The notes under the pieces are model-generated. The model was not told the DNA's origin. It made no database searches and saw only the letters and a program-made list of their open reading frames with translations. 33,638 nt of DNA. Source: Minisyncoccota bacterium. Lineage in GTDB: Bacteria; Patescibacteriota; Minisyncoccia; Phycocordibacterales; VMEP01. How positions within the stretch are numbered: position 1 is the stretch's first letter; each line of letters begins with the position of its first letter. Both the position numbers and the translations under genes were made by a program. This document shows positions 21,407-33,638 of the stretch, piece after piece. The stretch lies in assembly GCA_041661305.1 (NCBI GenBank), contig JBAZUR010000002.1, forward strand, positions 76,621-110,258, read 5' to 3'.

Positions 21407-21498
21407 GCTTATACTCATAAAATACACGCATAAAATTCTGCTGAATTTTTGCTCTGCTCGGCCCGTCGGCCTGTGCAAGATATTTTATGGGTATAAGC
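21407..21498 (+). repeat. Palindromic element copy E (56-nt core in 18-bp inverted arms)
   Basis: Core 21425-21480 matches the reverse complement of 26487-26542 at 43/56 nt; arms gcttatactcataaaata / tattttatgggtataagc. Confidence 0.85.
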
Positions 21499-21906: not shown

Positions 21907-22058
21907 AGTTATATAGTCTAGCGTATTTTGAGAGAAATGCACTAGTTGGGTATAAATAGAGGGGATTTCTCAGTTTGACCTTTGTTTAATTATGATGTAG
22001 TACTATGTGCAGTTGTTTCAAATTTTTCAACCAGGTTTGATAAAAAGAGGAAAACAAA

Positions 22059-23477
22059 ATGTACCTTTCAACTCGCGGTAAGGCACCGGCAGTCAATTTC
22101 GCAGACACAGTGCTTGCAGGATTGGCGCCAGACGGAGGGCTATATGTTCCGGAGAAGTTTTTCCGGGCCAATGAGGGAGATTTCCGGCTACACGCCAGCG
22201 GTTCGTATCAGGATGTCGCTCGTTTCGTGATGGAGCAATTTGCTCCCGACATCAATAGGAGCAAACTTTGGGGGGCAATAGCGAAAGCTTATACCCCGGA
22301 GGTCTTCAAGAACGTCGCTGGTCCAGGTTTCGAAGTGGCAAGTGATATTGTTCCGGTGCGCGACCTTGGGCGAGAGATGTATCTTGCCAGGCTGAGCAAT
22401 GGGCCGACTTTGGCGTTCAAGGATTTGCCTCTGCAGTTGCTCGGGCATCTTTTCGAAGTTGTTCTCGGGCGCAACAAGAAGCTCAACCTTCTCGGCGCGA
22501 CCTCGGGGGACACCGGCTCGGCGGCTATTCACGCAATGCTTGGGAGAAAAGGCATCCGTGTCTTTATGCTCTCTCCGCATGGCAAGATGAGCCAGTTTCA
22601 GGCTGCTCAGATTTTGAGCGTCAACGATCCGGCAGTTCACAACATTTCGATTCGCGGGTCGTTCGACGATTGCCAAGATGTGGTCAAGGCGGTCAATGCC
22701 GATGCCGGTTTCAAAGAGATGTACAGCATCGGTGCCGTGAACTCAATCAACTGGGCGCGTATTGCAGCTCAAGTCCCTTACTACTTCTGGGTTTACTCCC
22801 GGGTTCGTGGTGGTGATGGTGGAGTAATCGACGTTGCTGTCCCGACAGGGAACTACGGCAATATTTACGCGGCGTGGGTAGCGAAAATGATGGGGGTGCC
22901 GATTCGTCGGCTGATTCTCGCGACCAACGAAAATGACGTGCTTCACGAGTTTTTCACGACGGGCATTTACAAGCCCCGAGAGAAGACACTCGTGACGTCG
23001 AGTCCTTCGATGGACATCACCAAGGCATCGAATTTCGAACGATTCATCTACGATGTCTTTGGTGGCGATGCGGACAAGGTTTCGAAGTTGTGGAAAGCGC
23101 TCGACAAGTCGGGGCAGTTTGATTTGTCGCACAGGATATCGGCCATTCGGGCGAAGTCCGGCATCACTTCTTTTGCCACGCGTCAGAGGCAGGCGAACGA
23201 AGCAATCTTGCGTATCTTCAATAGCACTGGGGTTATCATCGACCCGCACACTGCGGTCGCGATGTATGCTGCAATCGGCATGAAACATCCGGGAGTGCCG
23301 ATGGTTGTGATGGAAACAGCGCAACCGTGCAAGTTTGATGACGCAGTAAAGAAGGCGCTCGGCCTCACAGCGAAACCGCCGGCCGGCATGGAAGGGCTTT
23401 TGTCCGCTGAAAAGTTCTTCACGCTGATGGATCCCGATCCCGAAAAGGTGAAGGATCTAATCCGTGCCTACGCGTAA
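22059..23477 (+). CDS. thrC: Threonine synthase (long, class II type)
   Basis: YLSTRG, GLAPDGGLYVP, GPTLAFKD (PLP Lys), ATSGDTG, FDDCQD, NSINWARI, VPTGNYG, SPSMDI, IDPHTA; AGAGG SD; GC-richer than flanks. Confidence 0.95.
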   Translation: MYLSTRGKAPAVNFADTVLAGLAPDGGLYVPEKFFRANEGDFRLHASGSYQDVARFVMEQFAPDINRSKLWGAIAKAYTPEVFKNVAGPGFEVASDIVPVRDLGREMYLARLSNGPTLAFKDLPLQLLGHLFEVVLGRNKKLNLLGATSGDTGSAAIHAMLGRKGIRVFMLSPHGKMSQFQAAQILSVNDPAVHNISIRGSFDDCQDVVKAVNADAGFKEMYSIGAVNSINWARIAAQVPYYFWVYSRVRGGDGGVIDVAVPTGNYGNIYAAWVAKMMGVPIRRLILATNENDVLHEFFTTGIYKPREKTLVTSSPSMDITKASNFERFIYDVFGGDADKVSKLWKALDKSGQFDLSHRISAIRAKSGITSFATRQRQANEAILRIFNSTGVIIDPHTAVAMYAAIGMKHPGVPMVVMETAQPCKFDDAVKKALGLTAKPPAGMEGLLSAEKFFTLMDPDPEKVKDLIRAYA

Positions 23478-23492
23478 TTTTTGCAGGATTTC

Positions 23493-23520
23493 AAACCTGG
23501 CCCTCGGGCCAGGTTTTTTT
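23493..23520 (+). terminator. thrC terminator
   Basis: aaacctggccc-tc-gggccaggttt followed by a T run. Confidence 0.85.
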
Positions 23521-23540
23521 GTTTGGGGAATATATAAAAT

Positions 23541-23570
23541 AAAAAAGATGGCACTTTGCGGTGCCATCTT
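23541..23570 (-). terminator. Terminator of the 179-aa gene
   Basis: aagatggcac / gtgccatctt 10-bp stem with an A run on the left (U tail on minus strand). Confidence 0.75.
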
Positions 23571-23582
23571 CTGCTTTGCTTG

Positions 23583-24122
23583 CTACCGCCCTCGCGGTTT
23601 TTCGAGCGGGATGATATTCGGGTTCCTCGCTTCGGCGATGTCGCCCGTGTCGTTGACGAGTAACATTGACGAACCCTTCATTGCAAAAATCATTTCGTAG
23701 ACAGTCGGCACTCGCTCTACGCGTCCTTTGCCGTCCTCACCTGGCACCCAGAACCCAGCTCGGTCTGCGCCAGTTTCTGCGCAATCCCAGCGGAGACAGC
23801 CGACAAGTTGCAACGACGGTTCTCTCTCGTAGACAACGGCATATTCGGGAATCTTGAAGTCGGCACTGACCGGTGTGTAGAGGGTAATCGGCTTGCCGAT
23901 GAAAATCGGATTGCCACACCATGCACAGCGGATTGCCATCTTGGCGATGCAGTCGAGACAGTAGTCCACTGAACCCTCTTCATTTATCGGCATTTTGGTT
24001 GTGATGGTGTGTCCGAAGGCCGATACTTTGCCCGTGCGCTTTGTGTGATGGCCACATATCGTGGCCATGTAACGACGCAGGCTCAGTCGAGCAAGATAAA
24101 GATACAAGTCGTATCGTTTCAT
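23583..24122 (-). CDS. Hypothetical Cys/His-rich protein (179 aa)
   Basis: AAGGAG SD, own terminator; CGH, YCLDC, CAWCGNPI and CLRWDC motifs suggest metal binding. Confidence 0.75.
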   Translation of the reverse strand: MKRYDLYLYLARLSLRRYMATICGHHTKRTGKVSAFGHTITTKMPINEEGSVDYCLDCIAKMAIRCAWCGNPIFIGKPITLYTPVSADFKIPEYAVVYEREPSLQLVGCLRWDCAETGADRAGFWVPGEDGKGRVERVPTVYEMIFAMKGSSMLLVNDTGDIAEARNPNIIPLEKPRGR

Positions 24123-25023: not shown

Positions 25024-25048
25024 AAATCCAAGGGATGCCCTTGGATTT
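25024..25048 (+). terminator. Hairpin after the small membrane genes
   Basis: aaatccaaggg-atg-cccttggattt 11-bp stem. Confidence 0.55.
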
Positions 25049-25057
25049 GGTAGTTTG

Positions 25058-25203
25058 ATGGGGGTGTCGGTCACGAGTATTTTTTATACCGTCGTATAAA
25101 AAATCTCTCGACCCCAGCTCGCCATTTTGTCTGCTGACAAAATAGGGCTGCGCTTTTCAATTCCCCCGCGCGAGCAAAGCAGTTTGCTCGCTCATCTCCA
25201 CCA
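25058..25203 (+). repeat. Palindromic element copy A with inverted copy of the tmRNA 3' end
   Basis: tcggtcacg...cgacccc core; ttcaattccccc[25 nt]catctccacca (25156-25203) mirrors the tmRNA T arm and acceptor end. Confidence 0.85.
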
Positions 25204-25244
25204 TAAAACAAAAGCGCCCCAAATTGGGACGCTAATGTTTTTAA

Positions 25245-25644
25245 TGGTGGAGATGGGGGGAATTGAACCCCCGTGCAGATGATTTTCAGGTGTGAGTCTA
25301 CGAGCTTAGTTTGTTTTTTGGTTTTCAACATGAAAGGTTTAAAGCAAACAAAATCCTTTCACACATATCCTCTATTTTTCAGTTAGTACTCCCGAAGATT
25401 GAAATACGCTTAGTCCGGAAATATAACGCCCGTTCACCTCTACCAGACTGCAAAGTGACGAACGACCTTCTACTTAAGTTTAGTTAAGCGAAAGCGACGG
25501 CGAAACTGTTGGCCTTAAAATAAGGAGAAACAGTTAGGCCCTGTGCATTTTTGTTTGCACTTATGTTTTGTGACGGTTTAACAAGTCATCACAGCTTGGC
25601 TCGCACACACGAGAATAGATCAGCTGTCTAAGCAAATCATCCCC
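25245..25644 (-). ncRNA. ssrA: tmRNA (400 nt), tag ANKNAQGLTVSPYFKANSFAVAFA*
   Basis: 5' GGGGATG pairs with CATCTCC-ACCA (G3:U70), T loop TTCAATT; resume GCA after ATAAGT at 25558, stop at 25484; directly downstream of smpB. Confidence 0.95.
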
Positions 25645-25714
25645 GTATTTAGATTAGTCATTAGCTTGTTAGGCGCTAGGGGGTACAGGTAAGAAAAAAA
25701 TTCCCCTACACCGA

Positions 25715-26164
25715 CTAAAGACTGTTTTTCAAAGTTCTACTTATTTCACGCATGTCGTCTCGTTTTTTTAAAGTCTCGCGTTTATCAAATTTCTTTTTAC
25801 CGCGAGCGATTCCGAGCGACACTTTAATCTTACCTTTTTTATTATACATCGAAAGTGGCACCATTGTCAACTTCTTCTCCTTCTCCATATGAGAGAGTTC
25901 CAATATTTCTTTTTTGGTCAAAAGAAGTTTTCTCGTGCGAAGCGGGTCGTAGCCCCCAGGCATATTTTGAGCTTGATATGGAGGGATATTTGAACCAAGC
26001 AAAAAAACTTCTCCTCCGCGGACGACAGCATAAGCTCCCTCAAGCGAGCCCTGACCACCTTTAATAGACTTAACCTCAGGGCCGAGAAGCTCAATACCGG
26101 CTTCAAAGGTTTCTGTGATTTCGTAATTAAAGCGTGCTTTTTTGTTTTCGATAAAGGAAGTCAC
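25715..26164 (-). CDS. smpB: SsrA-binding protein SmpB
   Basis: ENKKARFNY, EAGIEL.G.EVKS, RTRKLLL, TMVPL.MY, GKKKFDKRE motifs. Confidence 0.98.
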   Translation of the reverse strand: MTSFIENKKARFNYEITETFEAGIELLGPEVKSIKGGQGSLEGAYAVVRGGEVFLLGSNIPPYQAQNMPGGYDPLRTRKLLLTKKEILELSHMEKEKKLTMVPLSMYNKKGKIKVSLGIARGKKKFDKRETLKKRDDMREISRTLKNSL

Positions 26165-26238
26165 CGGGTAATTTTAACATGAGTTATAGGTTTTTTACTT
26201 TTCCTCTTTAAAAACACGATAAAATTCTGTTGATAAGA

Positions 26239-26400
26239 GTCGCGCGTCAATGGACGGTCGCGCGACATGATTTCGTCTAAATCATATACTCGCATTACGC
26301 ATAATTTCTTGCTAAAAATTTGCGCGACCCCGACTCGGCTCGCCAGCCTCCGCCTCTCAATTGCTTCACATGTCGCAATTGAGCATCGCGCTCCGTAATG
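26239..26400 (+). repeat. Palindromic element copy B plus adjoining hairpins
   Basis: aatttct-TGCT-aaaaatt hairpin then cgacccc as in copies A and D; 7-bp terminal IR cattacg/cgtaatg (26293-26400); extra stems at 26239-26266, 26267-26285 and ctcaattgc/gcaattgag. Confidence 0.75.
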
Positions 26401-26469
26401 TTTTTAAAAAGGAAAAGTCTAGATTTTTAAGAAAAATCAAAAAGATTAGTTTTTGGGTCTAAAATACCG

Positions 26470-26559
26470 GAGGTACACCCGAAAGACCTTGCACAGCGCG
26501 ACGGCGCGAGCAGAGAAAATTTTTAGCAAAAAATTATTCGTGTCTTTCGGGTGTACCTC
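26470..26559 (-). repeat. Palindromic element copy C (56-nt core in perfect 18-bp inverted arms)
   Basis: Arms gaggtacacccgaaagac / gtctttcgggtgtacctc; core homologous to copy E; 16-nt exact match to 33455-33470. Confidence 0.88.
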
Positions 26560-26629
26560 AAAAAAGAAGAATTTATGATAATAATGCTAAGTTCAACACT
26601 ATTTAAAACTGGTGTATAATATCGAAACT

Positions 26630-28564
26630 ATGCAAATAAAAATGCCAAAAATGAAAGGAGTAAAAGACGGAAAGGGTGATAAAAAAGAACCAAAGCCGAT
26701 GACCACACTTGGTTTGGTGAGTAATATTGCTACCGCGCTTTTAATTTTTCTATTAATAACTTCACTTTATTCATATATATCTGACAACGCCAAAAAAGCA
26801 GTAGACATTCCTATTTCGGAAGTGGCTAGCTTGGTACAAGAAGGGAAGGTGAAAAAGATTTCTGTTGAAGGAGAGAAGTTGGCACTCACTCTTACAGACG
26901 ACACCTTGCGTGCTTCAAAGAAGGAAGCTGAGTCAGCACTGTCAGAAACTCTTTCTCGCTATGGGGTCACCTCTGAAAAACTTTCAAAAATAGAGGTTGT
27001 TATTTCAAATGACCGTGGAGCATCATTTTGGCTTTTGAATATTTTGCCATTTCTCATTCCAATTATTTTTGTAATCTTTTTCTTTTGGTTTTTGTCTCGA
27101 CAAGTAAAAGGAGCAGGTATGCAGGCCTTCACTTTCGGGCAATCAAAAGCTCGTGTCATTGATCCTCTCGACTTAAACCAGAAAGTGACATTCAAAGATG
27201 TTGCCGGAGTGAAAGAAGCAAAAGAAGAACTTCGAGAGATTGTCGATTTTTTGAAAAATCCTAAAAAGTTTTTGGATATTGGCGCGCGTATTCCAAAAGG
27301 CGTTCTTTTGATGGGTGCGCCAGGTACAGGAAAGACTTTGCTTGCTCGCGCGGTTGCAGGGGAGGCAGCGGTCCCATTCTTCTATCTTTCAGGTTCAGAG
27401 TTCGTGGAAATGTTTGTCGGCGTTGGTGCTTCTCGCGTGCGTGACCTTTTCGCAATGGCCAAAAAAGCCGCGCCAGCCATTATTTTCGTCGATGAGATTG
27501 ACGCTGTCGGACGGGTACGTGGTACAGGCGTTGGTGGTGGCAACGACGAACGTGAACAGACATTAAATCAAATCTTGGTTGAGATGGATGGTTTTGAGCC
27601 GACTGAAAAAGTGATTGTCATGTCCGCGACAAACAGACCAGATGTTTTGGACCCAGCTTTGCTTCGCCCAGGTCGTTTTGATCGACGTGTGATTTTGGAT
27701 TTGCCTGATCGCGATGAACGTGAAGAAATTTTGAGAATTCATAGTTTGAAAAAGCCGTTGACCGAAGATGTTAATCTCCGTGTTATCGCTGAGCGTACCC
27801 CTGGATTTTCTGGTGCTGACTTATTCTCACTTATGAACGAAGGTGCAATTTTGGCTGCCCGCGAGGTTCGTAAAAAAGTTTCGCAATATGACCTCATTCG
27901 TTCTATTGAAAAGGTGATGATGGGGCCAGAAAGAAAGAGTCATCTTCTTTCAGTTAAAGAAAAAGAAATCACCGCTTATCACGAAGCTGGACATGCTTTG
28001 CTTGCATCGGTTTTGCCATACGCTGACCCTGTGCACAAAGTTTCAATCGTTGCCCGCGGGCGTGCTGGGGGATACACTCTTAAACTTCCGATTGAAGAAA
28101 GAAAGCTCCAGTCAAAGAAAGAATTTTTGGATGACATCATTGTTTCACTTGGTGGATATGTCGCAGAAGAAACAGTTTTTGGTGACCTCACAACAGGACC
28201 ATCAAACGACTTGCAGGTTGCAACCGCTCTTGCACGCGACATGGTCACGAAGTATGGAATGTCTGACAAAATGGGACCCGTGGCTCTTGAGGGTTCTGGT
28301 GGACGTGTGCTTTTTGGCACAGGTGTTTCAGACCACGGATATTCAGAAGTTGTTTCTGCAAAAATTGACGAGGAAGTTTCAAAGATAATGAACGACTCGA
28401 TGAAGAAGGCGCAGACAGAAATAAAAGCAAATAGAAAAATACTTGATGCCATCGCCAAAGAACTTATCTCTGTTGAAACTATTGAACGTGAGGAGTTTGA
28501 AAAGATTCTTGTGGCTAACGGCATAATGCCAAAGAAAGGGGAAGGGATAGATATAGTTTCATAG
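26630..28564 (+). CDS. ftsH: ATP-dependent zinc metalloprotease FtsH
   Basis: Two TMs, GAPGTGKT Walker A, IFVDEID Walker [19 protein letters not shown] zinc motif; ATG 26630 preferred because GTG 26612 overlaps the TATAAT box. Confidence 0.98.
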
Positions 28565-28606
28565 AACAGCTAGATTTATCTATGTCGGTATGTTTTTAAT
28601 GTGGAT

Positions 28607-29086
28607 ATGAATAATAAATTCTCATCTTGGAAAACTATTACAATTGGTAATTATAAAAATACCGATGAACTTAAGGAAGATATTTTGAAATTAGGATTTC
28701 GCATTGGTGACTGGGCTAACGACATACTCAATGATCCCTCCTTCGATCTGGCTTCTAAAGAAATAAAGATAGATTTAATCTGCATCACTGTTGGTGAACT
28801 TGGTTTTAAAAACGGTGCTTACCTTAAAGAAATTCAAGATAGAGCACTAAGTCTTGGTCTTAAGTACTGCCCAATGGAAGTTGGCCCTCAATTGCGCCGA
28901 CAGTATATAGACCAGCCTAGACTCGAGTCTCTTCAGATAGGAATGCAATCACAGGTTGATTCAAAAGGACACAAGAGTGAATTTAGAGTTGTGCATGGAG
29001 TTGATGGTTTTATGTGGCTAGTTGGCGACCATAAACATCAAGATAATTTTTGGGAAGAAGGCGAACAGTTTATTTTTGTAAAATGA
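28607..29086 (+). CDS. Hypothetical protein (about 160 aa)
   Basis: TVGELGF...GLKYCPMEVGPQLRRQYIDQP...WL...W...FIF pattern, recognised as a recurring uncharacterised domain; function unknown. Confidence 0.7.
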   Translation: MNNKFSSWKTITIGNYKNTDELKEDILKLGFRIGDWANDILNDPSFDLASKEIKIDLICITVGELGFKNGAYLKEIQDRALSLGLKYCPMEVGPQLRRQYIDQPRLESLQIGMQSQVDSKGHKSEFRVVHGVDGFMWLVGDHKHQDNFWEEGEQFIFVK

Positions 29087-29108
29087 TTTAAATTTTAATA
29101 TCAAAATG

Positions 29109-30113
29109 TTATTTTGATATTTTATTTAATCTCTCCTCAATCAAATCTATTTTTCCACTGACGTTTTGATAGTGTGATTTTTTAGAAGCATAGAATTCAT
29201 AATCCCTTTTGGTGTGAGAATCACCACCACCACTTTCTAGTGCTTTATATTTTTTGATCAGCTTTTTGAGCATCTCCTGCTCTTCTTTTACTTCCTTCTT
29301 ATACTTTCCTTTGATTCCCAAACCATAAGTTGTTTCAAGCCCATCAATACGTTTTTGCTTGAGCAATTTTTCTACAAGCTTTGGAGGTACTTCTCTTCTT
29401 GTTGTGAAATAGTGAGCAATGAAAGCTAAACCTCCAGCATTTCGAATTAGAGTGACTGCCTCGTCTAAATCCGGCTTATCATCTATTTCAACAGAACATG
29501 GTTTGAAAGCGTGGTGTCCCAAAAAAAGACTATATGGATATTGGTACTCCCCAATAGACATCATCAAATCATATTCTTTTTTTATTTTCTCATTAGTCTT
29601 TGAGGCCTCTTTCATTTCCTCAATAGATTTTTTGAATATGGTTAAGTTTTTCTTTTTTGAAAGAAGAACAGAGACAATATGTGGTTTGCCAACGGTTCCT
29701 TCTCCAGCTTTACGGAGGCATTCTTCCGGGGTAATAGAGAGACTGTATTTCTGAAGACGAAGAACGGTTTTCTTCATTCGACTAATTCTCATTTTTGTTT
29801 GTTTATCAACAAAAGAACGAAGTTTTTTATTTTTTGGATCAACAAAAAGCCCGATTACGTGGAGGGTTCCATCGCCGTTTGTGGCGTCTTTGGGGTGTTC
29901 GGCAGAAATTTCAATACCCAAGATTGCTCGCACATCTCCTTTGTATTTATTTAGAAAGGAGATTGTTTTTTCACTCGGCAAGACATCATGGTCTGTGAAC
30001 GCTAGCGTTTTATACCCAAGCTTTTCGGCGAGCGATAAAACTTCTTTGTGGCTTAACGCTCCGTCTGAGATTTTTGTGTGATTATGAAGTGATTCGATTT
30101 GTCGTTTTTTCAT
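29109..30113 (-). CDS. PHP-family metal-dependent phosphoesterase (YciV/TrpH-like)
   Basis: HNHTKISDG, AFTDHD, GIEIS, HVIG, KPH, AHY and GGDSH metal ligands. Confidence 0.88.
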   Translation of the reverse strand: MKKRQIESLHNHTKISDGALSHKEVLSLAEKLGYKTLAFTDHDVLPSEKTISFLNKYKGDVRAILGIEISAEHPKDATNGDGTLHVIGLFVDPKNKKLRSFVDKQTKMRISRMKKTVLRLQKYSLSITPEECLRKAGEGTVGKPHIVSVLLSKKKNLTIFKKSIEEMKEASKTNEKIKKEYDLMMSIGEYQYPYSLFLGHHAFKPCSVEIDDKPDLDEAVTLIRNAGGLAFIAHYFTTRREVPPKLVEKLLKQKRIDGLETTYGLGIKGKYKKEVKEEQEMLKKLIKKYKALESGGGDSHTKRDYEFYASKKSHYQNVSGKIDLIEERLNKISK

Positions 30114-30174
30114 TTTGTGTATTTTCTGAGTCGCCAGTATAGCATATGTGAATATGTTGATTTCGACTCTTTAC

Positions 30175-30203
30175 TTGAACTGTTTGCTCTAAAAATGTAG
30201 ACT
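30175..30203 (+). promoter_or_regulatory. Putative promoter of the tRNA-Ile locus
   Basis: TTGAAC-17nt-TAGACT ending 27 nt before the interrupted tRNA copy. Confidence 0.6.
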
Positions 30204-30240
30204 TCATCCGTGGCTGATTGAAAATATGCGTCCGTCCTTA

Positions 30241-30278
30241 CCCGCCCGAATGGAACGAGCCCGCTCGGTACGGGCGGG
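30241..30278. mobile_element. 38-nt miniature hairpin insertion at TTA^G
   Basis: cccgcccg...cgggcggg terminal inverted repeat; absent from the intact tRNA copy. Confidence 0.8.
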
Positions 30279-30291
30279 GCTCAGTTGGTTA

Positions 30292-30327
30292 CCTGCCCGA
30301 ACGACTGGAATCGTTCAGTCGGGCGGG
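30292..30327. mobile_element. 36-nt miniature hairpin insertion at TTA^G
   Basis: cctgcccga...tcgggcggg terminal inverted repeat; same target context as the 30241 insertion. Confidence 0.8.
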
Positions 30328-30422
30328 GAGCACAGAGCTTATAAATGGCAACGAGGAATAAGTGGAAGTTTACTTACATTTAGGCCGAGTGAACCGTTTA
30401 TATGAATTGAAAATTTCATAGT

Positions 30423-30496
30423 CCGTCCTTAGCTCAGTTGGTTAGAGCACAGAGCTTATACCTCTGCGGTCCCTGGTTCGAATCCAGGAGGACGGA
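30423..30496 (+). tRNA. tRNA-Ile(UAU), CCA not encoded
   Basis: Cloverleaf CCGTCCT/AGGACGG, D stem GCTC/GAGC, anticodon arm CAGAG-CTTATAC-CTCTG, T arm CCTGG-TTCGAAT-CCAGG, A73. Confidence 0.93.
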
Positions 30497-30515
30497 CTAT
30501 GAAATAAATCATATC

Positions 30516-30539
30516 CCTCTGCGGTCCCTGGTTCGAATC
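30516..30539 (+). pseudogene. 3' fragment (from C38 through the T loop) of tRNA-Ile(UAU)
   Basis: cctctgcggtccctggttcgaatc identical to 30461-30484. Confidence 0.92.
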
Positions 30540-30553
30540 AGAAAAAAACAACC

Positions 30554-32713
30554 CTACTCAAAGTGTATCGTCGCTGTTTTTTCTGCCAATTTTTCTTTTA
30601 GTGCAGGATACTTAGAGATTTTATTTTCAAGAATAATTTTTTTAGCTTCTTCTCGCGCAGCCTCCACCATTTTCAGATTTTTCAGCGCTTCCATTCCTAT
30701 ATCAGAAAGACCCCACTGTTTTCCGCCAGATAATTCCCCTGGGCCACGCAGTTTCAAATCAAGCTCAGCAAGTTCAAATCCATTTTTTGCTTCTGTAATT
30801 GCTTTTAGTCTTGCTTTTGATTTTTCACCATCTGACTCTGGGAAGAGATAGCAGTACGACTGATGATTGCTTCTTTGCACACGCCCGCGAAGTTGATGGA
30901 GTTGAGCAAGACCGAACCGTTCTGCGCCCTCGATAATAATAGAAGTGGCATTTGGAATATTGACGCCAACTTCAATAACAGAAGTAGCAACAAGAATATG
31001 TATTTTACCAGCAAGGAAATCATCCATTACCTTGTCGCGAGCTTCACGCTTCATTTTGCTGTGAATGATACCGATTACCGAATCGGGGAAAACACTTTTC
31101 TTTAAGCGCTTCGCTTCGGCTATTACTGATTTTGCGTTTAGTGCCATAGCCTTATCAGGATCCGGTTCGTCTATACGAGGACAAATAATATAGGCCTGTC
31201 TTCCGCTTGTGATTTCCTCTTTTATTTTTTCGTAGACTTTATCGCGTTTTCCTTTGGTGACGATTTCGGTTATGACCTGTTTTCGTCCAGCCGGCATTTC
31301 GTCGATAAGAGTTAGGTCGAGGTCGCCATAGACCGTGAGTGCAAGTGTGCGGGGGATTGGAGTTGCTGTCATAGAAAGAAGATGTGGTGCGAAGTCATCT
31401 TTGCGAGCAAGCTTCATTCTTTGGTTTGTGCCGAAGCGATGTTGTTCATCAATAATAACGAGACCTAATCTTTTAAAAGAAACACTTTTTTGGATTAAGG
31501 CGTGCGTTCCAATCACAATTGGAATTTCTCCATTGGCTACCCATTTTAAAAATTGAGTTCGTGAAATATCAGTCCAAGAGCTTGGGTTGACCTTTGATGG
31601 AAATTTTCTACATCCAGAGCCGGTGATTAATCCGACAGCAATATTCATATGGGTGAAATATTTAATGAATGATTCGAAATGTTGAGAGGCCAATATTTCT
31701 GTTGGTGCCATGTAGGCCACTTGAAGTCGCGCGGCGCGGTTGTCTTTTGGGCTTGTGGAGATTACGGCGTAAGAAGCAGTTGCGGCAACAGCTGTTTTGC
31801 CTGAGCCAACGTCACCTTCAAGTAGTCGGGACATTGGTTTCCCGCTTTTGAAGTCTTCTAAAATATCTTTAACTGCGTTATTTTGCGCGAGAGTTGCTTC
31901 AAATGGGAAGCGCTCAATAAAAGTACGCACTTCTTTTTCACTAGGTTCAATGACGAAAGAACTATTTTTTTCAAATTCAAATTTTGCTTGTTGTCTTTGG
32001 AGTTGAATAAAAAATACTTCTTCAAAAGCAAAACGTTTGCGTGCGGCGGAAGCGTGAGATTCGTTTTTTGGATTGTGGATAAAGATAAGAGCGTCTTTGA
32101 GTGGGGGAAGTTTGTAGTGCGCCAAAATTTCATTTGGAATAGGGTCTTCCAATGTATCCAAAAAACTTGCTTGCAAAAGTTTTTTTATTGAGTGCTGGAA
32201 CCACAAAGAAGAGATTCCTTTACTCTCCTCGTATACGGGAATCATGCTCTCTGTCATTACCGATTCTCCCAAAAGTCCGTTTTGAAGAGGGAGTTCCGCA
32301 ACACGTTCAATGTCTGGGTTGGCGAGATATTTTGAGCCATTTCTTTCTGTAACAGTCCCGCTAACTCTCACCGAAGATTCAGCTGGAATCATTTTTGCCA
32401 GATATGGCTGATTGAACCAAACTATTTTTATTGACCCAGTGTGGTCGGTTAGGGTCCCTTCAGCCATCGGGATTTTCTTTCGAAAAGCTTTACTTGTTTT
32501 GAGGTTGGTTAGTTTGCCAAAAAAGATGACACGGTCACCAGAGCGCGAGGAGAGAATAGCTTGCGAGGAACCAAAGTCTATATATCGCGAAGGTAAATGA
32601 TAGAGAAGATCTCGGACGGTTGTTAGATTTAGTTTAGTTAGGGCCTCTTTTTGCTCTTGTTTTAGTTTAAACAAAGAGGTAATTGGCGTTTTTTCTTCAA
32701 AGGATGGTTGCAT
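30554..32713 (-). CDS. recG: ATP-dependent DNA helicase RecG
   Basis: Wedge/OB region VWFNQPYL, RLLEGDVGSGKT, MAPTEILA, IIDEQHRFG, MTATPIPRTL, ERFGLAQLHQLRGRV, DLKLRGPGE. Confidence 0.98.
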   Translation of the reverse strand: MQPSFEEKTPITSLFKLKQEQKEALTKLNLTTVRDLLYHLPSRYIDFGSSQAILSSRSGDRVIFFGKLTNLKTSKAFRKKIPMAEGTLTDHTGSIKIVWFNQPYLAKMIPAESSVRVSGTVTERNGSKYLANPDIERVAELPLQNGLLGESVMTESMIPVYEESKGISSLWFQHSIKKLLQASFLDTLEDPIPNEILAHYKLPPLKDALIFIHNPKNESHASAARKRFAFEEVFFIQLQRQQAKFEFEKNSSFVIEPSEKEVRTFIERFPFEATLAQNNAVKDILEDFKSGKPMSRLLEGDVGSGKTAVAATASYAVISTSPKDNRAARLQVAYMAPTEILASQHFESFIKYFTHMNIAVGLITGSGCRKFPSKVNPSSWTDISRTQFLKWVANGEIPIVIGTHALIQKSVSFKRLGLVIIDEQHRFGTNQRMKLARKDDFAPHLLSMTATPIPRTLALTVYGDLDLTLIDEMPAGRKQVITEIVTKGKRDKVYEKIKEEITSGRQAYIICPRIDEPDPDKAMALNAKSVIAEAKRLKKSVFPDSVIGIIHSKMKREARDKVMDDFLAGKIHILVATSVIEVGVNIPNATSIIIEGAERFGLAQLHQLRGRVQRSNHQSYCYLFPESDGEKSKARLKAITEAKNGFELAELDLKLRGPGELSGGKQWGLSDIGMEALKNLKMVEAAREEAKKIILENKISKYPALKEKLAEKTATIHFE

Positions 32714-32743
32714 GTGTTTGCTTTTAGTATAGCAAACTAGAAA

Positions 32744-33343
32744 TTAGTTTTTCTTTTGATTATTGCCGAGAAGATTATCTTCGAAAATTGTGGTAACGAG
32801 ACGTTCGATAAAGAGAAAAAGAAGTAATCCTAGAGCAAGACCAATTTCGGCGTAACGAAAATAGTTTTTGAGATGTGGTATCCATGCGCTCGCACAATAG
32901 GCGATTCCACCAACAAAGAAAACCCAAACAAGAATAGCTCTTATGTCTGCACTAAAGAATTTTTTAGTTGGTAGGTTGAGCATCCCTGTTCGAATAAGGG
33001 TGATGTGGTTGGTTCCGTAGATAAATTTTGTTACTAGGAGAAGTTTTTCTGGGCGATTTGCGATACCGTCGTCGAAACGCTTGGTTATTCTTTCAATTAT
33101 TTTTGCCGGCAGTTTAGTAGGATATCGGCCGATAAATTTTCCAAGTGAATACCAAAGAAAATCTCCAATAATCGCACCGACGATAAGAAGTGGAAGGATG
33201 TATGGAAGATAGAAAAAGTTTTGCTGTGTTAAGAAGCTTGAGACGAAGATTACAATATCTCCCTCAAACATAATTAGAAAAAAAGCGCCAAGGTAAGCAG
33301 AAAATTTCCAAGCAAGAAGGTAGTTTAAAAATAGGGTTTTCAT
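32744..33343 (-). CDS. dedA: DedA/SNARE-associated family membrane protein
   Basis: FEGD, GAIIGDFLWYSLGK, KFIYG and FF..D..A..VW motifs; several TMs. Confidence 0.85.
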   Translation of the reverse strand: MKTLFLNYLLAWKFSAYLGAFFLIMFEGDIVIFVSSFLTQQNFFYLPYILPLLIVGAIIGDFLWYSLGKFIGRYPTKLPAKIIERITKRFDDGIANRPEKLLLVTKFIYGTNHITLIRTGMLNLPTKKFFSADIRAILVWVFFVGGIAYCASAWIPHLKNYFRYAEIGLALGLLLFLFIERLVTTIFEDNLLGNNQKKN

Positions 33344-33398
33344 TCGTTTAGTACCGTAATTTTAACATGCCAAAAAACAAAGAGTCACTTTCTTTCTG

Positions 33399-33525
33399 CG
33401 GAGACGGTGGTTCGGTCACGGATATTTTTCTGCTGAAAAATTCCGCGACCCCGCCTCGCGCCGTCGCGCTCCGGCCTTCGAATCCCACACGCGAGCAAAG
33501 CAGTTTGCTCGCTCGTCTCCGTTTT
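33399..33525 (+). repeat. Palindromic element copy D with inverted and direct copies of the tRNA-Ser 3' end
   Basis: cggagacggtgg (33399-33410) repeats 33542-33553; ttcgaatcccac[25 nt]cgtctccgtttt (33477-33525) mirrors the tRNA end; TGCT and CGTC hairpins in between. Confidence 0.88.
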
Positions 33526-33541
33526 TCACGGAGCTTCAAAA

Positions 33542-33628
33542 CGGAGACGGTGGGATTCGAACCCACGGTCCCGATTAAGGGACGCCTCGTTAGCAGTGAG
33601 GTGCTTTCGACCACTCAGCCACGTCTCC
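33542..33628 (-). tRNA. tRNA-Ser(GCU), CCA not encoded
   Basis: GGAGACG/CGTCTCC acceptor, G73, anticodon loop CTGCTAA, long variable arm, T loop TTCGAAT; one A31-C39 mismatch. Confidence 0.95.
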
Positions 33629-33638
33629 ATATATTGTA

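Follow-up and report, generated by a model that had tools for sequence, protein, structure and literature searches.

Hairpin-split antisense copies of the gene end behind a tmRNA and a tRNA-Ser gene of a Minisyncoccota bacterium

Two elements behind a tmRNA and a tRNA-Ser gene

The window, a 33,638-nt stretch of DNA from a Minisyncoccota bacterium, carries a tmRNA gene at 25245-25644 and a tRNA-Ser(gct) gene at 33541-33629, both on the minus strand and both identified by ARAGORN and Rfam. Each is host to a structured element beyond its 3' end. The initial annotation of the window had placed two elements with a common hairpin downstream of these genes, and both were recovered there, with an identical 24-nt hairpin sequence in each. 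The term 'downstream' hides the fact that it is the tRNA-sense strand whose structure is constrained. Within the window, the 24-mer was present exactly twice, as was the core pattern, compared to none expected from 100 shuffles, and both elements folded far better than shuffled sequence on either strand (z -5.1 to -6.2). An assembly artefact, which the initial annotation had raised as a concern, was not the cause: both elements recurred base for base in independent assemblies (L379 and L381 for the tmRNA, L382 for tRNA-Ser). At the gathering threshold of Rfam 15, the only matches were four tRNA/tmRNA genes, and E-value searches with both elements returned only chance microRNA and sRNA matches (E of at least 0.56).

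Read in the direction of the gene, the tmRNA element, with all parts on the minus strand, is preceded by a spacer at 25204-25244. The terminator scan and the sequence placed a strong intrinsic terminator in this spacer (stem 25233-25213, then TTTGTTTT), which forms the apex of the palindrome. The next segment, at 25193-25203, is antisense to the 3' strand of the tmRNA acceptor stem and to the CCA. It reads catctccacca on the plus strand and TGGTGGAGATG on the tRNA-sense strand, with an A opposite U70; it complements the 3' strand, and the 5' strand GGGGATG is not its source. Between positions 66 and 65 of the antisense copy lies a 25-nt hairpin insert with a 9-bp stem (25168-25192; plus strand gc, GCGAGCAAAGCAGTTTGCTCGC, t), whose loop reads CUGC on the tRNA-sense strand. 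The antisense copy then continues with the T-stem 3' strand and the T loop at 25156-25167 (plus strand ttcaattccccc). The core at 25067-25155 consists of two hairpins, P1 at 25067-25115 (TCGGTCACG..CGACCCC) and P2 at 25116-25155, and carries a conserved internal-loop motif, CTCG / CT(G/C)CG. Beyond it, at 25048-25064, sequence and family-wide repeat analysis revealed a decayed distal direct repeat of the tmRNA 3' end. The direct copy gatggggg claimed in the initial annotation is present as an exact copy, at 25057-25064 rather than at 25058-25065, one base off, and a longer decayed copy, tggtagtttgatggggg, starts at 25048 (counterpart tggtggagatggggg). The repeated segment corresponds to the host tmRNA from about C56 to the 3' CCA. 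A second terminator-like hairpin follows the repeat at 25027-25046.

The tRNA-Ser element, also on the minus strand throughout, is set off from its gene by the spacer tttttcacggagcttcaaaa at 33522-33540, which holds a further 5-nt partial copy (cggag) and in which the terminator scan predicted no terminator. The same spacer type was found in L009, L032 and L067. The antisense of the acceptor 3' strand and discriminator lies at 33514-33521 (plus strand cgtctccg), followed by the 25-nt hairpin insert at 33489-33513 (plus strand ac, the 22-mer, t), identical to the tmRNA insert at 24 of 25 nt, and by the antisense of the T-stem 3' strand and T loop at 33477-33488 (plus strand ttcgaatcccac). The core at 33412-33476 (P1 33412-33452, P2 33453-33476) contains a 33-nt block identical to the tmRNA-cassette core of a close relative, L243. 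The distal direct repeat at 33399-33410, cggagacggtgg, corresponds to the T-stem 3' strand, acceptor and discriminator, and is followed by a T-rich, weak terminator-like stretch. The tRNA-Ser gene is CCA-less, and both arms of its element run on into the gene flank (CGTCTCCGTTTT).

Architecture, distribution and turnover of the cassettes

Patescibacteria genomes are about 1 Mb in size and very poor in repeats. The initial annotation had held that absence from other tRNA loci and genomes would speak against the elements; the exact 22-nt hairpin was found in at least 120 species-level genomes, nearly all of them Patescibacteria (CPR), with a few copies in MAGs labelled Proteobacteria. Of 124 hairpin copies, 88 had a tRNA or tmRNA 3' end no more than 150 nt away; their orientation never differed, and any isotype could be the host. 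The cassettes were about 130-190 nt long and ORF-less. A cassette was kept at the tmRNA locus of all sampled close relatives, and empty loci were present in distant CPR relatives. A metagenome scan with the tmRNA 3' 25-mer, aimed at empty alleles, returned mostly other phyla and was used as a negative control; the antisense copy was absent at 70 of 70 tmRNAs of other phyla and at 14 of 14 viral tRNAs. A phage origin was not supported, as the hairpin was absent from IMG/VR and BLAST searches against phages and plasmids gave no match. The 120 matches to the core pattern in IMG/VR were attributed to chance, none being near a tRNA. Separately, a candidate core relic was seen behind tRNA-Ala, with a score only about 3.6 sd above shuffles. 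The initial annotation knew of no described system with this layout, and literature searches, including those with the exact 22-mer and for repeats downstream of tRNA genes, likewise found no published description.

In the tRNA direction, the order of a cassette is gene, spacer, antisense copy of positions 73 to 54 split between 66 and 65 by the 25-nt hairpin, two-hairpin core, and direct repeat of C56-73. The stretch from acceptor copy to T-stem copy was exactly 25 nt in 48 of the 53 strictly matched elements, the register of the insert being ambiguous by one base. When the arms were compared with the adjacent tRNA, the 12 nt left of the hairpin matched perfectly in 26 of 68 elements, at least 10 of these positions agreed in 43 of 68, and the 7 nt to the right matched perfectly in 26 of 68. 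This matching bore out the earlier claim that the arms derived from the host vary with the locus, in contrast to the common hairpin and core. Hairpin-less versions of the layout exist, so the hairpin is not essential for it. The direct repeat started most often at C56 (range 55-61) and ended at 73-75 in most elements; in L001 it extended through the terminator. Most repeats were only 100-200 nt apart and enclosed no cargo; in L027 and L039, second tRNA-like repeats 3.7-4.4 kb away enclosed other genes. A T-run spacer separated the gene from the inverted copy in 47 of 86 family members, the spacer often being an intrinsic terminator, and spacers were short or absent in some loci (2-9 nt). A sister class, represented by L382, L084 and L086, joins right after G18-G19 of the D loop.

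Two simple origins of the antisense copy were rejected. Direct duplication of a mini-tRNA would give a copy of the 5' strand, but the antisense acceptor segment complements the 3' strand, including an anti-CCA and an A opposite U70. A PBS-like reverse-transcription copy of the mature tRNA would run into CCA, but the arms at CCA-less genes enter the flank.

The cassettes were modular. Near-identical cores were found behind tRNA-Ser, tRNA-Asp and tRNA-Pro with different arms at each: the L061 (Ser) and L105 (Asp) cores were 94.7% identical over 94 nt, and that of L051 (Pro) was 91-93% identical to both. At L009, L018, L030, L065, L073 and L242, units that differed from one another stood in tandem arrays, and every unit had a repeat and a terminator to itself. 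Strains with 100% identical SmpB carried different cassettes (L378 compared to L379 and the window), cassette alleles were incongruent with the tmRNA body, and the divergence between L248 and L246 started at T-loop position 57. Gene content beyond the cassette also varied between relatives. Copies within one genome were dissimilar outside the hairpin and short motifs, unlike a MITE burst, and decay of arms, repeats or hairpins was common. Many Patescibacteria tRNA and tmRNA tails hold a gene-less structured module that is swapped even among strains with identical neighbouring proteins. Two consequences matter for genome annotation: metagenome assemblies break at tRNA loci through these cassettes, and the CCA encoding status of a gene can change through them.

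Some of these features would also be expected of a passive by-product of replication, in which template switching at the T-arm and terminator palindromes produces a sense-antisense-sense triplication of the tail, and hairpin and core modules then spread by gene conversion, with no need for a dedicated enzyme or function. The layout is direct-inverted-direct and reverses precisely at two sites, the terminator hairpin and the palindromic TTCGAA in the T loop. Gene flank is part of the palindrome, the T-loop junctions vary from 55 to 61, and modules are shuffled among loci. However, a core-less 'bare' triplication was found at 0 of the 277 tRNAs and tmRNAs tested, and the layout is absent from other phyla with identical tmRNA tails. 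Nor does template switching account for the constant 25-nt insert at one junction or the full compensation within the hairpin, and for one and the same 22-nt hairpin to be present in at least 120 species and in different phylum-level groups, either horizontal spread or selection is required. A purely passive origin is considered very improbable.

Strand asymmetry and a proposed insertion at the T loop

The structure of the cassettes is constrained on the tRNA-sense strand. This strand was the more stable one in 34 of 41 elements, with 95 G.U pairs compared to 57 on the other, and GNA triloops and tandem G.A motifs are read on it. Among 14 hairpin variants, all 126 of 126 pair positions were paired, double changes occurred at 9 of 9 pairs, and G.U pairs were confined to the tRNA-sense strand. 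On folding, the antisense copy has two pairing partners, namely the gene-end copy on the other side of the spacer and the distal repeat. The plus strand was considered as a functional RNA and rejected: its apparent UUCG/GCAA loops are triloops that read GNA on the sense strand, and it is the sense strand that has the better energies, more G.U pairs and the G.A motifs. Kissing between the CUGC loop and a CAGCAG loop was rejected as well, since it was not kept in the hairpin variants.

Such a constraint could reflect a structured RNA of the tRNA strand, either cis-acting or co-transcribed, that folds beyond the tRNA as a tRNA-shaped three-way junction in which an acceptor-like helix of 7-8 bp, an arm of 9 bp and a T-stem-like helix meet. 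It could serve as a processing, stability or termination signal, for example as an entry site for RNase P or RNase Z, or alternatively as a switch in which the antisense segment pairs with the tRNA 3' strand or the distal repeat. The sense-strand G.U pairs, tandem G.A motifs and full hairpin covariation fit this explanation, as do the constant 25-nt length, the hairpin position at the equivalent of the 7/49 junction and the cassette kept at the tmRNA locus of all sampled close relatives; the 2-9-nt spacers of some loci would force co-transcription. The read-through switch proposed in the initial annotation is unlikely for the tmRNA, where the terminator at 25233-25213 intervenes, whereas an RNA role is possible at tRNA-Ser because no terminator is predicted in the interval between gene and cassette. 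For the family as a whole, the T-run spacers (47 of 86), the patchy distribution with empty loci in other CPR, and the arrays of several unlike units that can follow a single tRNA argue against an RNA function, as does the decay of arms, repeats or hairpins in many copies. A search for a promoter-like site found none, no Rfam family matched, and a processing signal would have no need of the host's own sequence or gene flank. A structured RNA is regarded as fairly unlikely.

The reading preferred here is that both elements are members of a large undescribed family of tRNA/tmRNA 3'-end cassettes, mainly of Patescibacteria, and that each is a cassette of the non-autonomous kind, inserted at the T loop in such a way that the end of the gene is restored. 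Both statements are tentative, with a joint likelihood placed a little short of even. They come close to the second option of the initial annotation, a tRNA-targeting element that copies its target. Recombination inside the T loop, at 55/56 to 56/57, would integrate the cassette. The gene would be rebuilt with a 3' end supplied by the newcomer, while its previous 3' end, along with cassettes inserted earlier, would be displaced outward. If the tRNA-sense strand became single-stranded, the gene-end copy and the antisense copy would pair to give a mimic of the double-stranded target, an attP-like hairpin, and would do so in the manner of the two inverted sites of CTXphi or of an integron attC. 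The 9-bp hairpin would exit the helix exactly where the D and anticodon arms depart in a real tRNA, so the fold would be tRNA-shaped. The order of target copy, spacer, inverted copy, body and target copy is the one that single-strand exchange in the T loop would produce, and many decayed copies would be expected if integration were irreversible. In favour of insertion are the tie to tRNA and tmRNA tails, the arms matched to the adjacent gene, the cores that recur with different arms, the arrays, taken as repeated insertion, and the swapped and incongruent alleles, taken as turnover and horizontal exchange. Architecture, target match, junction positions, strand asymmetry and the sharing and turnover of cassettes are observations; the single-stranded intermediate, the direction of insertion and a partner enzyme are inferred.

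The cassette would be non-autonomous because it encodes no recombinase. Within 2.5 kb of the 124 hairpin copies, no recurring recombinase, transposase or Rep gene was present. When 974 neighbouring ORFs were clustered in search of a partner in cis, the resulting groups reflected synteny alone (SmpB, FtsH and the CCA enzyme, for example), and no free or circular form, nor any copy in phage or plasmid collections, was seen. Besides these negative results, several points weigh against insertion. Copies in one genome have little in common outside the hairpin and short motifs; hairpin-less versions exist; the model does not explain how a lineage could move to a new tRNA with both arms still matched; ordinary homologous recombination at a hypervariable locus could account for the exchange of alleles among strains; and RNA would fit the G.U/G.T pairs and G.A motifs no less well than single-stranded DNA.

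In a target-matched, 'programmable' form of insertion, the cassette would carry its own guide, namely the antisense tail copy, which the fixed 9-bp hairpin would shape into a tRNA-like three-way junction. Cutting and joining at the tRNA elbow would fall to an enzyme that acts in trans and reads the shape of a tRNA, and the arms would be rewritten from the new target. The junctions point towards such reading of the elbow: T-loop cassettes join at C56 and the sister class after G18-G19. C56 and G19 are in contact in the folded tRNA. This form of insertion is rated quite unlikely. If it were true, the smallest bacterial genomes would harbour a new class of DNA insertion guided by nucleic acid, and arms truly rewritten for each target would amount to a naturally retargetable insertion device.

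Comparison with known systems

Some guide RNAs resemble the split antisense copy. In the H/ACA pocket and in RNase P external guide sequences, a target strand pairs with two guide segments flanking a hairpin to form a three-way junction, and external guide sequences build a tRNA-like shape on their target; this resemblance bears on the RNA explanation only. The cassettes appear to lack ACA or box motifs, and the target here, the acceptor and T-stem 3' strand, is already paired in the folded tRNA. The partner proteins are not known from bacteria. In IS110/IS1111 elements, with their bridge RNA or seekRNA, a DEDD/serine recombinase gene lies next door, and each guide half pairs with a different strand of the target. 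The cassettes have no ORF, and their split copy is antisense to a single strand over both of its halves.

REP/BIME and IS200/IS605-derived palindromic elements are, like the cassettes, small intergenic hairpins of one DNA strand, non-autonomous and served in trans (RAYT/TnpA, HUH), with short guide-like sequences beside the hairpin foot. They differ in having no long target duplication and no tRNA specificity, and their guides are only 4-5 nt. Elements of the IS200/IS605 and REP/RAYT type have subterminal hairpins at both ends and leave the 4-5-nt target beside them unduplicated, with a Y1 HUH enzyme in the genome. The cassettes do have hairpins on one strand, but their long duplication sets them apart, and the only Y1_Tnp ORF noted was a weak match from genomes in which the sampled tRNAs are cassette-free. 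MITEs, derivatives of DDE transposons, have terminal inverted repeats that are constant within a family and a short target-site duplication of fixed length; in the cassettes, the terminal inverted sequences are target-derived and locus-specific and the duplication varies from 12 to more than 50 nt.

Parallels are found in the tRNA islands and CIMEs of tyrosine integrases, which likewise insert in the 3' part of the gene, supply the gene end, leave a direct repeat from T loop to 3' end and make the locus a hot spot with variable neighbours. The cassettes could be leftovers of integrase-borne islands, with the direct repeats as attL/attR cores of a tyrosine integrase using the T-loop sublocation, and the 130-190 nt between them as attP arms fused after cargo loss or as a CIME-like element moved in trans. 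The span of the direct repeats is typical of tRNA-integrating elements, gene content past the cassette varies among relatives as at island hot spots, and the second repeats of L027 and L039 enclose other genes at 3.7-4.4 kb. However, neither the DNA within 2.5 kb of the 124 copies nor the L027 and L039 cargo contained an integrase, and most repeats, at 100-200 nt, are cargo-less. The hairpin-bearing inverted target copy is foreign to conventional attP arms, and strand-asymmetric folding is unexpected for double-strand att sites. An origin from islands is judged distinctly unlikely.

Integron attC sites share with the cassettes their short length (about 60-140 nt), ORF-less imperfect palindromes, occurrence in arrays and a single active strand; they are recognised as a folded single strand in which structure counts for more than sequence. 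R/L boxes (GTTRRRY) occur in neither element of the window, and the cassettes are tied to tRNA genes rather than to cassette ORFs, with stems that are copies of the target.

The insertion reading has a close parallel in CTXphi and other Xer-exploiting integrative elements (IMEX) with a folded single-strand attP(+). In CTXphi, inverted sites fold in single-stranded DNA, one strand is exchanged and the target regenerated, arrays form and integration is irreversible (PMC3442271). In both systems, two inverted target-like copies can pair in one strand to mimic the duplex target, the target is regenerated beside the element, and a direct repeat lies at the far end; tandem arrays occur here at L009, L073 and L242, among others. 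The integrated form is inert and can decay (PMC3442271). No dif-like or Xer-type site was evident in the elements, and the target differs, being the tRNA/tmRNA T loop here and dif in CTXphi; the cassettes are gene-less and about 150 nt long compared to a 7-kb phage, and one arm bears the 25-nt hairpin. If the cassettes are of this hairpin-attP type, they would point to a recombinase that reads tRNA-shaped DNA, and would extend the principle of CTXphi and integrons to tRNA genes in an element of about 150 nt.

Two cassettes and their copied arms

The tmRNA (25245-25644) and tRNA-Ser(gct) (33541-33629) genes of the window, both on the minus strand, were identified by ARAGORN and Rfam. Just past the 3' end of each, the same parts were present in the same order on the plus strand: a short copy, antisense of the gene end; hairpin P1, whose base is TCGGTCACG..CGACCCC; another hairpin, P2; the T loop and 3' T-stem strand as found in the host gene itself; an insert of 25 nt with the sequence (g/a)c-GCGAGCAAAGCAGTTTGCTCGC-t; the acceptor 3' strand of the host gene, with CCA added in the tmRNA case; and a spacer, followed by the host gene in antisense. 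The 24-mer of the insert occurred twice in the window against none expected from shuffles, as did the P1 pattern. Outside these two motifs, element 1 (behind tmRNA) and element 2 (behind tRNA-Ser) were only 73% similar. Both strands of both elements folded far above shuffled controls (z -5.1 to -6.2). No ORF was found inside the elements, neither gave an Rfam match, and the neighbourhood is ordinary chromosome (IF3, threonine synthase, SmpB, FtsH, RecG and a VTT-domain protein), with a Parcubacteria-group MAG as the nearest named relative by SmpB. Both elements were recovered exactly in independent assemblies (public contigs L379 and L381 for element 1, L382 for element 2), and an assembly artefact, a concern of the initial annotation, is thus excluded.

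The same annotation had proposed a custom copy made at each locus, an idea supported by the match of the arms to the adjacent gene. Of 68 cases compared, 26 had a perfect match between the 12 nt on the left side of the insert and the T loop plus T-stem 3' strand of the neighbour, and 43 agreed at 10 positions or more; on the right side, 7 nt equalled the acceptor 3' strand in 26/68. When both arms were required to match strictly, the insert measured exactly 25 nt in 48 of 53 elements. The antisense acceptor strand complements the tRNA 3' strand, which ruled out the 5' strand as its source; an A faces U70 (six tmRNAs) or U71 (tRNA-Glu). The anti-CCA is part of this strand wherever CCA is encoded. 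Both arms of the CCA-less Ser gene extend into the gene flank, CGTCTCCGTTTT; the copy therefore derives from DNA or precursor, and mature tRNA is ruled out as its origin. The distal direct repeat most often starts at C56 (range 55-61) and in most cases ends at the discriminator +/-2, and the repeat of L001, a public locus behind tRNA-Glu, extends through the terminator.

Hosts and distribution of the hairpin

The observation made in the window was confirmed and greatly extended. An exact-match scan for the 22-nt hairpin, with one genome per species, returned at least 120 loci. Among the matches listed, carriers were nearly all Patescibacteria, with MAG labels including Saccharibacteria, Paceibacterota, Kaiser-, Nomura- and Magasanikbacteria and others; a few were labelled Proteobacteria. 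L001 bears this label as given, and has a proteobacterial-looking tRNA-Glu tail, an encoded CCA and 57% GC. The association with tRNA tails recurred at other loci and in other genomes: for 88 of the 124 hairpin copies among the matches listed, a tRNA or tmRNA 3' end lay within 150 nt, and the orientation relative to it was the same throughout these 88. Hosts among the same matches comprised more than 25 anticodon species and 6 tmRNAs. As controls, 70 tmRNAs of other phyla sharing the same 3' 25-mer and 14 viral tRNAs were inspected, and the antisense copy was present in none of either. No cassette copies were found in IMG/VR, GenBank phages or PLSDB plasmids, and no recurrent protein was found beside the elements beyond tRNA-specific synteny.

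Passive template switching at two natural palindromes, the T arm and the terminator, would yield the direct-inverted-direct order. It is nevertheless very unlikely as the origin of the cassettes, as a core-less example was seen in 0 of the 277 genes tested and an identical hairpin across phylum-level groups is not obtainable in this way.

A candidate for a similar layout was seen ~20-100 nt past the tmRNA of L231, a metagenome contig of another phylum (tmRNA tag ADANRADFALAA, 56% GC). Behind the tmRNA come GATGGGGG, antisense to the junction of its T stem and acceptor, then a 9-bp hairpin (GCGAAGCGA..TCGCTTCGC) with the 7-nt direct repeat TTCGGCC on its flanks, and then a direct copy, CATCTCCACCA. 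This arrangement may be a distant cousin of the cassette or a coincidence.

Constraint on a single strand

The cassette is under constraint in single-stranded form, with the polarity of the tRNA. Of 41 elements, 34 folded more stably on the S strand (that of the tRNA gene) than on the complementary one (mean difference 4.6 kcal/mol), and predicted G.U pairs numbered 95 on the S strand against 57. Fourteen hairpin variants were taken from other tRNAs of the same loci and from relatives. The 9-bp stem was retained on the S strand with full compensation, all 126 of 126 pair positions being paired, a figure somewhat inflated by the choice of variants for their hairpin-like look. Two-sided changes were seen at 9/9 pairs, and five G.U pairs would be A.C mismatches if read on the opposite strand. 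Exceptions were mismatches at loci L021 and L025 and a decayed hairpin at L241. Triloops, reading GTA or GAA on the S strand, predominate at the tips of the core hairpins, and tandem G.A occurs on this strand at two conserved internal loops, namely CGGAG/CGAG in P2 and the copied T loop, where TTCTCAT recurrently replaces TTCGAAT.

The S-strand order is a' (anti 73-66), one linker base, the 9-bp hairpin, one or two linker bases, t' (anti 65-61), the anti-T loop, P2', P1' and CGAAT-t-a, with a closing helix (a':a plus t':t) of at least 12 bp. The hairpin branches from this helix at precisely the point at which a real tRNA has its D and anticodon arms, and, going by standard tRNA geometry, the 9 bp of the hairpin would correspond in length to D stem and anticodon stem together. 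In one core hairpin per element (window 25116-25155 and 33420-33445), a CAGCAG loop on the tRNA-sense strand is complementary to the CUGC loop of the 25-nt hairpin (25179-25182 and 33500-33503). A kissing contact is possible; the complementarity was not retained in relatives with other loops.

A sense-strand constraint also fits an RNA-level role, either as a processing or termination signal or as the RNA switch of the initial annotation, and so does the Ser spacer, which has no predicted terminator. Such a role is unlikely given the strong terminator at tmRNA, T-run spacers in 47 of 86 elements, the patchy distribution, arrays and decay, and the switch proposal is for the most part not supported. 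The other suggestion of that annotation, a tRNA-targeting element, is the better lead.

Turnover, proposed insertion and known systems

Constant modules move among different tRNAs and among lineages. The cores of the public loci L061 (tRNA-Ser) and L105 (tRNA-Asp) were 94.7% identical over 94 nt with different arms, and that of L051 (tRNA-Pro) was 91-93% identical to both; at all three, locus-specific sequence begins inside the T loop. A 33-nt block was identical between the window's Ser core and the tmRNA cassette of a close relative, and spacers varied between elements with a common core. Cassettes also come in successive layers. Arrays of dissimilar units lie behind several tRNAs (L009, L018, L030, L065, L073 and L242), every unit terminating in its own tRNA-tail copy, often with its own terminator too, and decay is greater in distal units. 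Hairpin-less versions were found at L039 and in unit 1 of L073.

A cassette was present at the smpB-tmRNA locus of every close relative sampled (SmpB identity at least 89%); in CPR genomes with ~65% identical SmpB, none was found at 7 tRNA/tmRNA genes. Two very different cassettes occur among contigs with SmpB 100% identical to that of the window; L379 and L381 carry the window allele, and L378 has a different hairpin, core and terminator and does not encode CCA. By tmRNA gene alignment, cassette alleles were incongruent with the tmRNA-body phylogeny, the switch point being the last bases of the gene. In contig L248 it is T-loop position 57, the tmRNA loop and antisense copy being altered together. 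Genes past the cassette vary among relatives. Many public contigs of the window's species stop in or beside the cassette (L375, L377, L380, L381 and L383-L385), suggesting that assembly at tRNA tails is interrupted by repeat copies and strain variation.

In some strains, a 532-aa ORF in which a reverse-transcriptase domain is joined to a trypsin-like protease adjoins the distal side of the tmRNA cassette (L242 3816-5414; L244 1977-3575); L243 and L245, with identical SmpB, have other genes in its place. In the relatives L246-L249, an 89-aa ORF with a GIY-YIG nuclease domain separates smpB from tmRNA (2949-3218 in L246); the window has a gap of only 70 nt there. A 224-aa ORF with a weak match to Y1 (IS200-like, HUH) transposases (L253/L254 4815-5489) belongs to a CPR genome without cassettes at the sampled tRNA/tmRNA genes.

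Direct repeats and hot-spot character would be expected of remnant or cis-mobilisable att sites from ordinary integrase islands. We consider this origin quite improbable in view of the inverted split copy, the strand asymmetry and the integrases not found, none lying between the distant repeats in two cases with a second repeat kilobases away.

Other features were seen in the window. A 24-nt direct copy just downstream of tRNA-Ile(tat) (30516-30539, cf. 30461-30484) spans the anticodon-stem 3' strand to the T loop and stops within it (TTCGAATC); it is a further T-loop recombination scar, with hairpin and core absent. Around 90 nt past tRNA-Ala(ggc), at ~21420-21480, CACGcATAaaaTTCTGCTGAA and a CTCGG..GTCGGCC hairpin form a candidate decayed core (local alignment score 22 versus 14 +/- 2.2 for shuffles). 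Adjoining this tRNA, the threonine synthase gene (22059-23477) lies in a block of 53% GC (22000-24000) compared to ~40% elsewhere, and the block looks like horizontally acquired DNA.

A sister class of module is inserted after D-loop G18-G19 and repeats the gene's 5' part, its flanking direct repeat comprising the promoter region and tRNA positions 1-18 (41 nt in L382). It was found in L382 (~1040-1215), upstream of the window's tRNA-Ser and just past the right end of the window, and at L084 (7790-7930), L086 (60-190) and L033. The module starts with a CTGC-loop hairpin, of 12 bp in L382 and with the canonical 22-mer in the other three. Since this class joins just after G18-G19, and G19 pairs with C56 at the tRNA elbow, an insertion system guided by tRNA shape is a conceivable, if improbable, reading.

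The T loop (C56) and the tail repeat delimit the cassette as a unit, and the host gene is always intact. The process is tentatively postulated, at a little under even odds, to be a site-specific insertion at tRNA tails through a folded attachment site, hairpin-attP-like, by recombination in the T loop with the folded S strand. The cassette would enter by T-loop recombination, bringing a terminator and the gene sequence from position 56 to the 3' end, and the old tail would be displaced to form the distal repeat. The observed order is exactly what would result if the tRNA gene and a folded S-strand circle, made up of tail, terminator, antisense tail with hairpin, and core, underwent a single-strand exchange at 55/56, and the antisense copy would serve to make the tail double-stranded, hence target-like, within a single strand. 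Such insertion would account for the decay of integrated copies, for unlike copies within one genome and for the encoded 3' end (CCA or not) moving with the cassette allele; it leaves unexplained the matching of both arms to a new tRNA, the enzyme and the replication site of free copies.

The proposed logic, inverted sites folding in a single strand, is that of CTXphi, in which two inverted sites fold into attP(+), one strand pair is exchanged, dif is regenerated, arrays are formed and the integrated copy is inert (PMC3442271). Integron attC sites follow a similar logic. The cassette failed the defining tests of a MITE, an IS200/IS605-REP element, an IS110 bridge-RNA element and an integron attC site. 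No mention of the hairpin or layout was found in the literature searched, and within it and to our knowledge the layout is undescribed: a gene-less cassette of ~150 nt with a stem copied from its tRNA target, a joint at C56, and a constant 25-nt hairpin splitting the stem at the acceptor/T-stem junction. In its working the cassette most resembles a hairpin-attP element (IMEX or attC), and its niche is that of tRNA-integrating islands.
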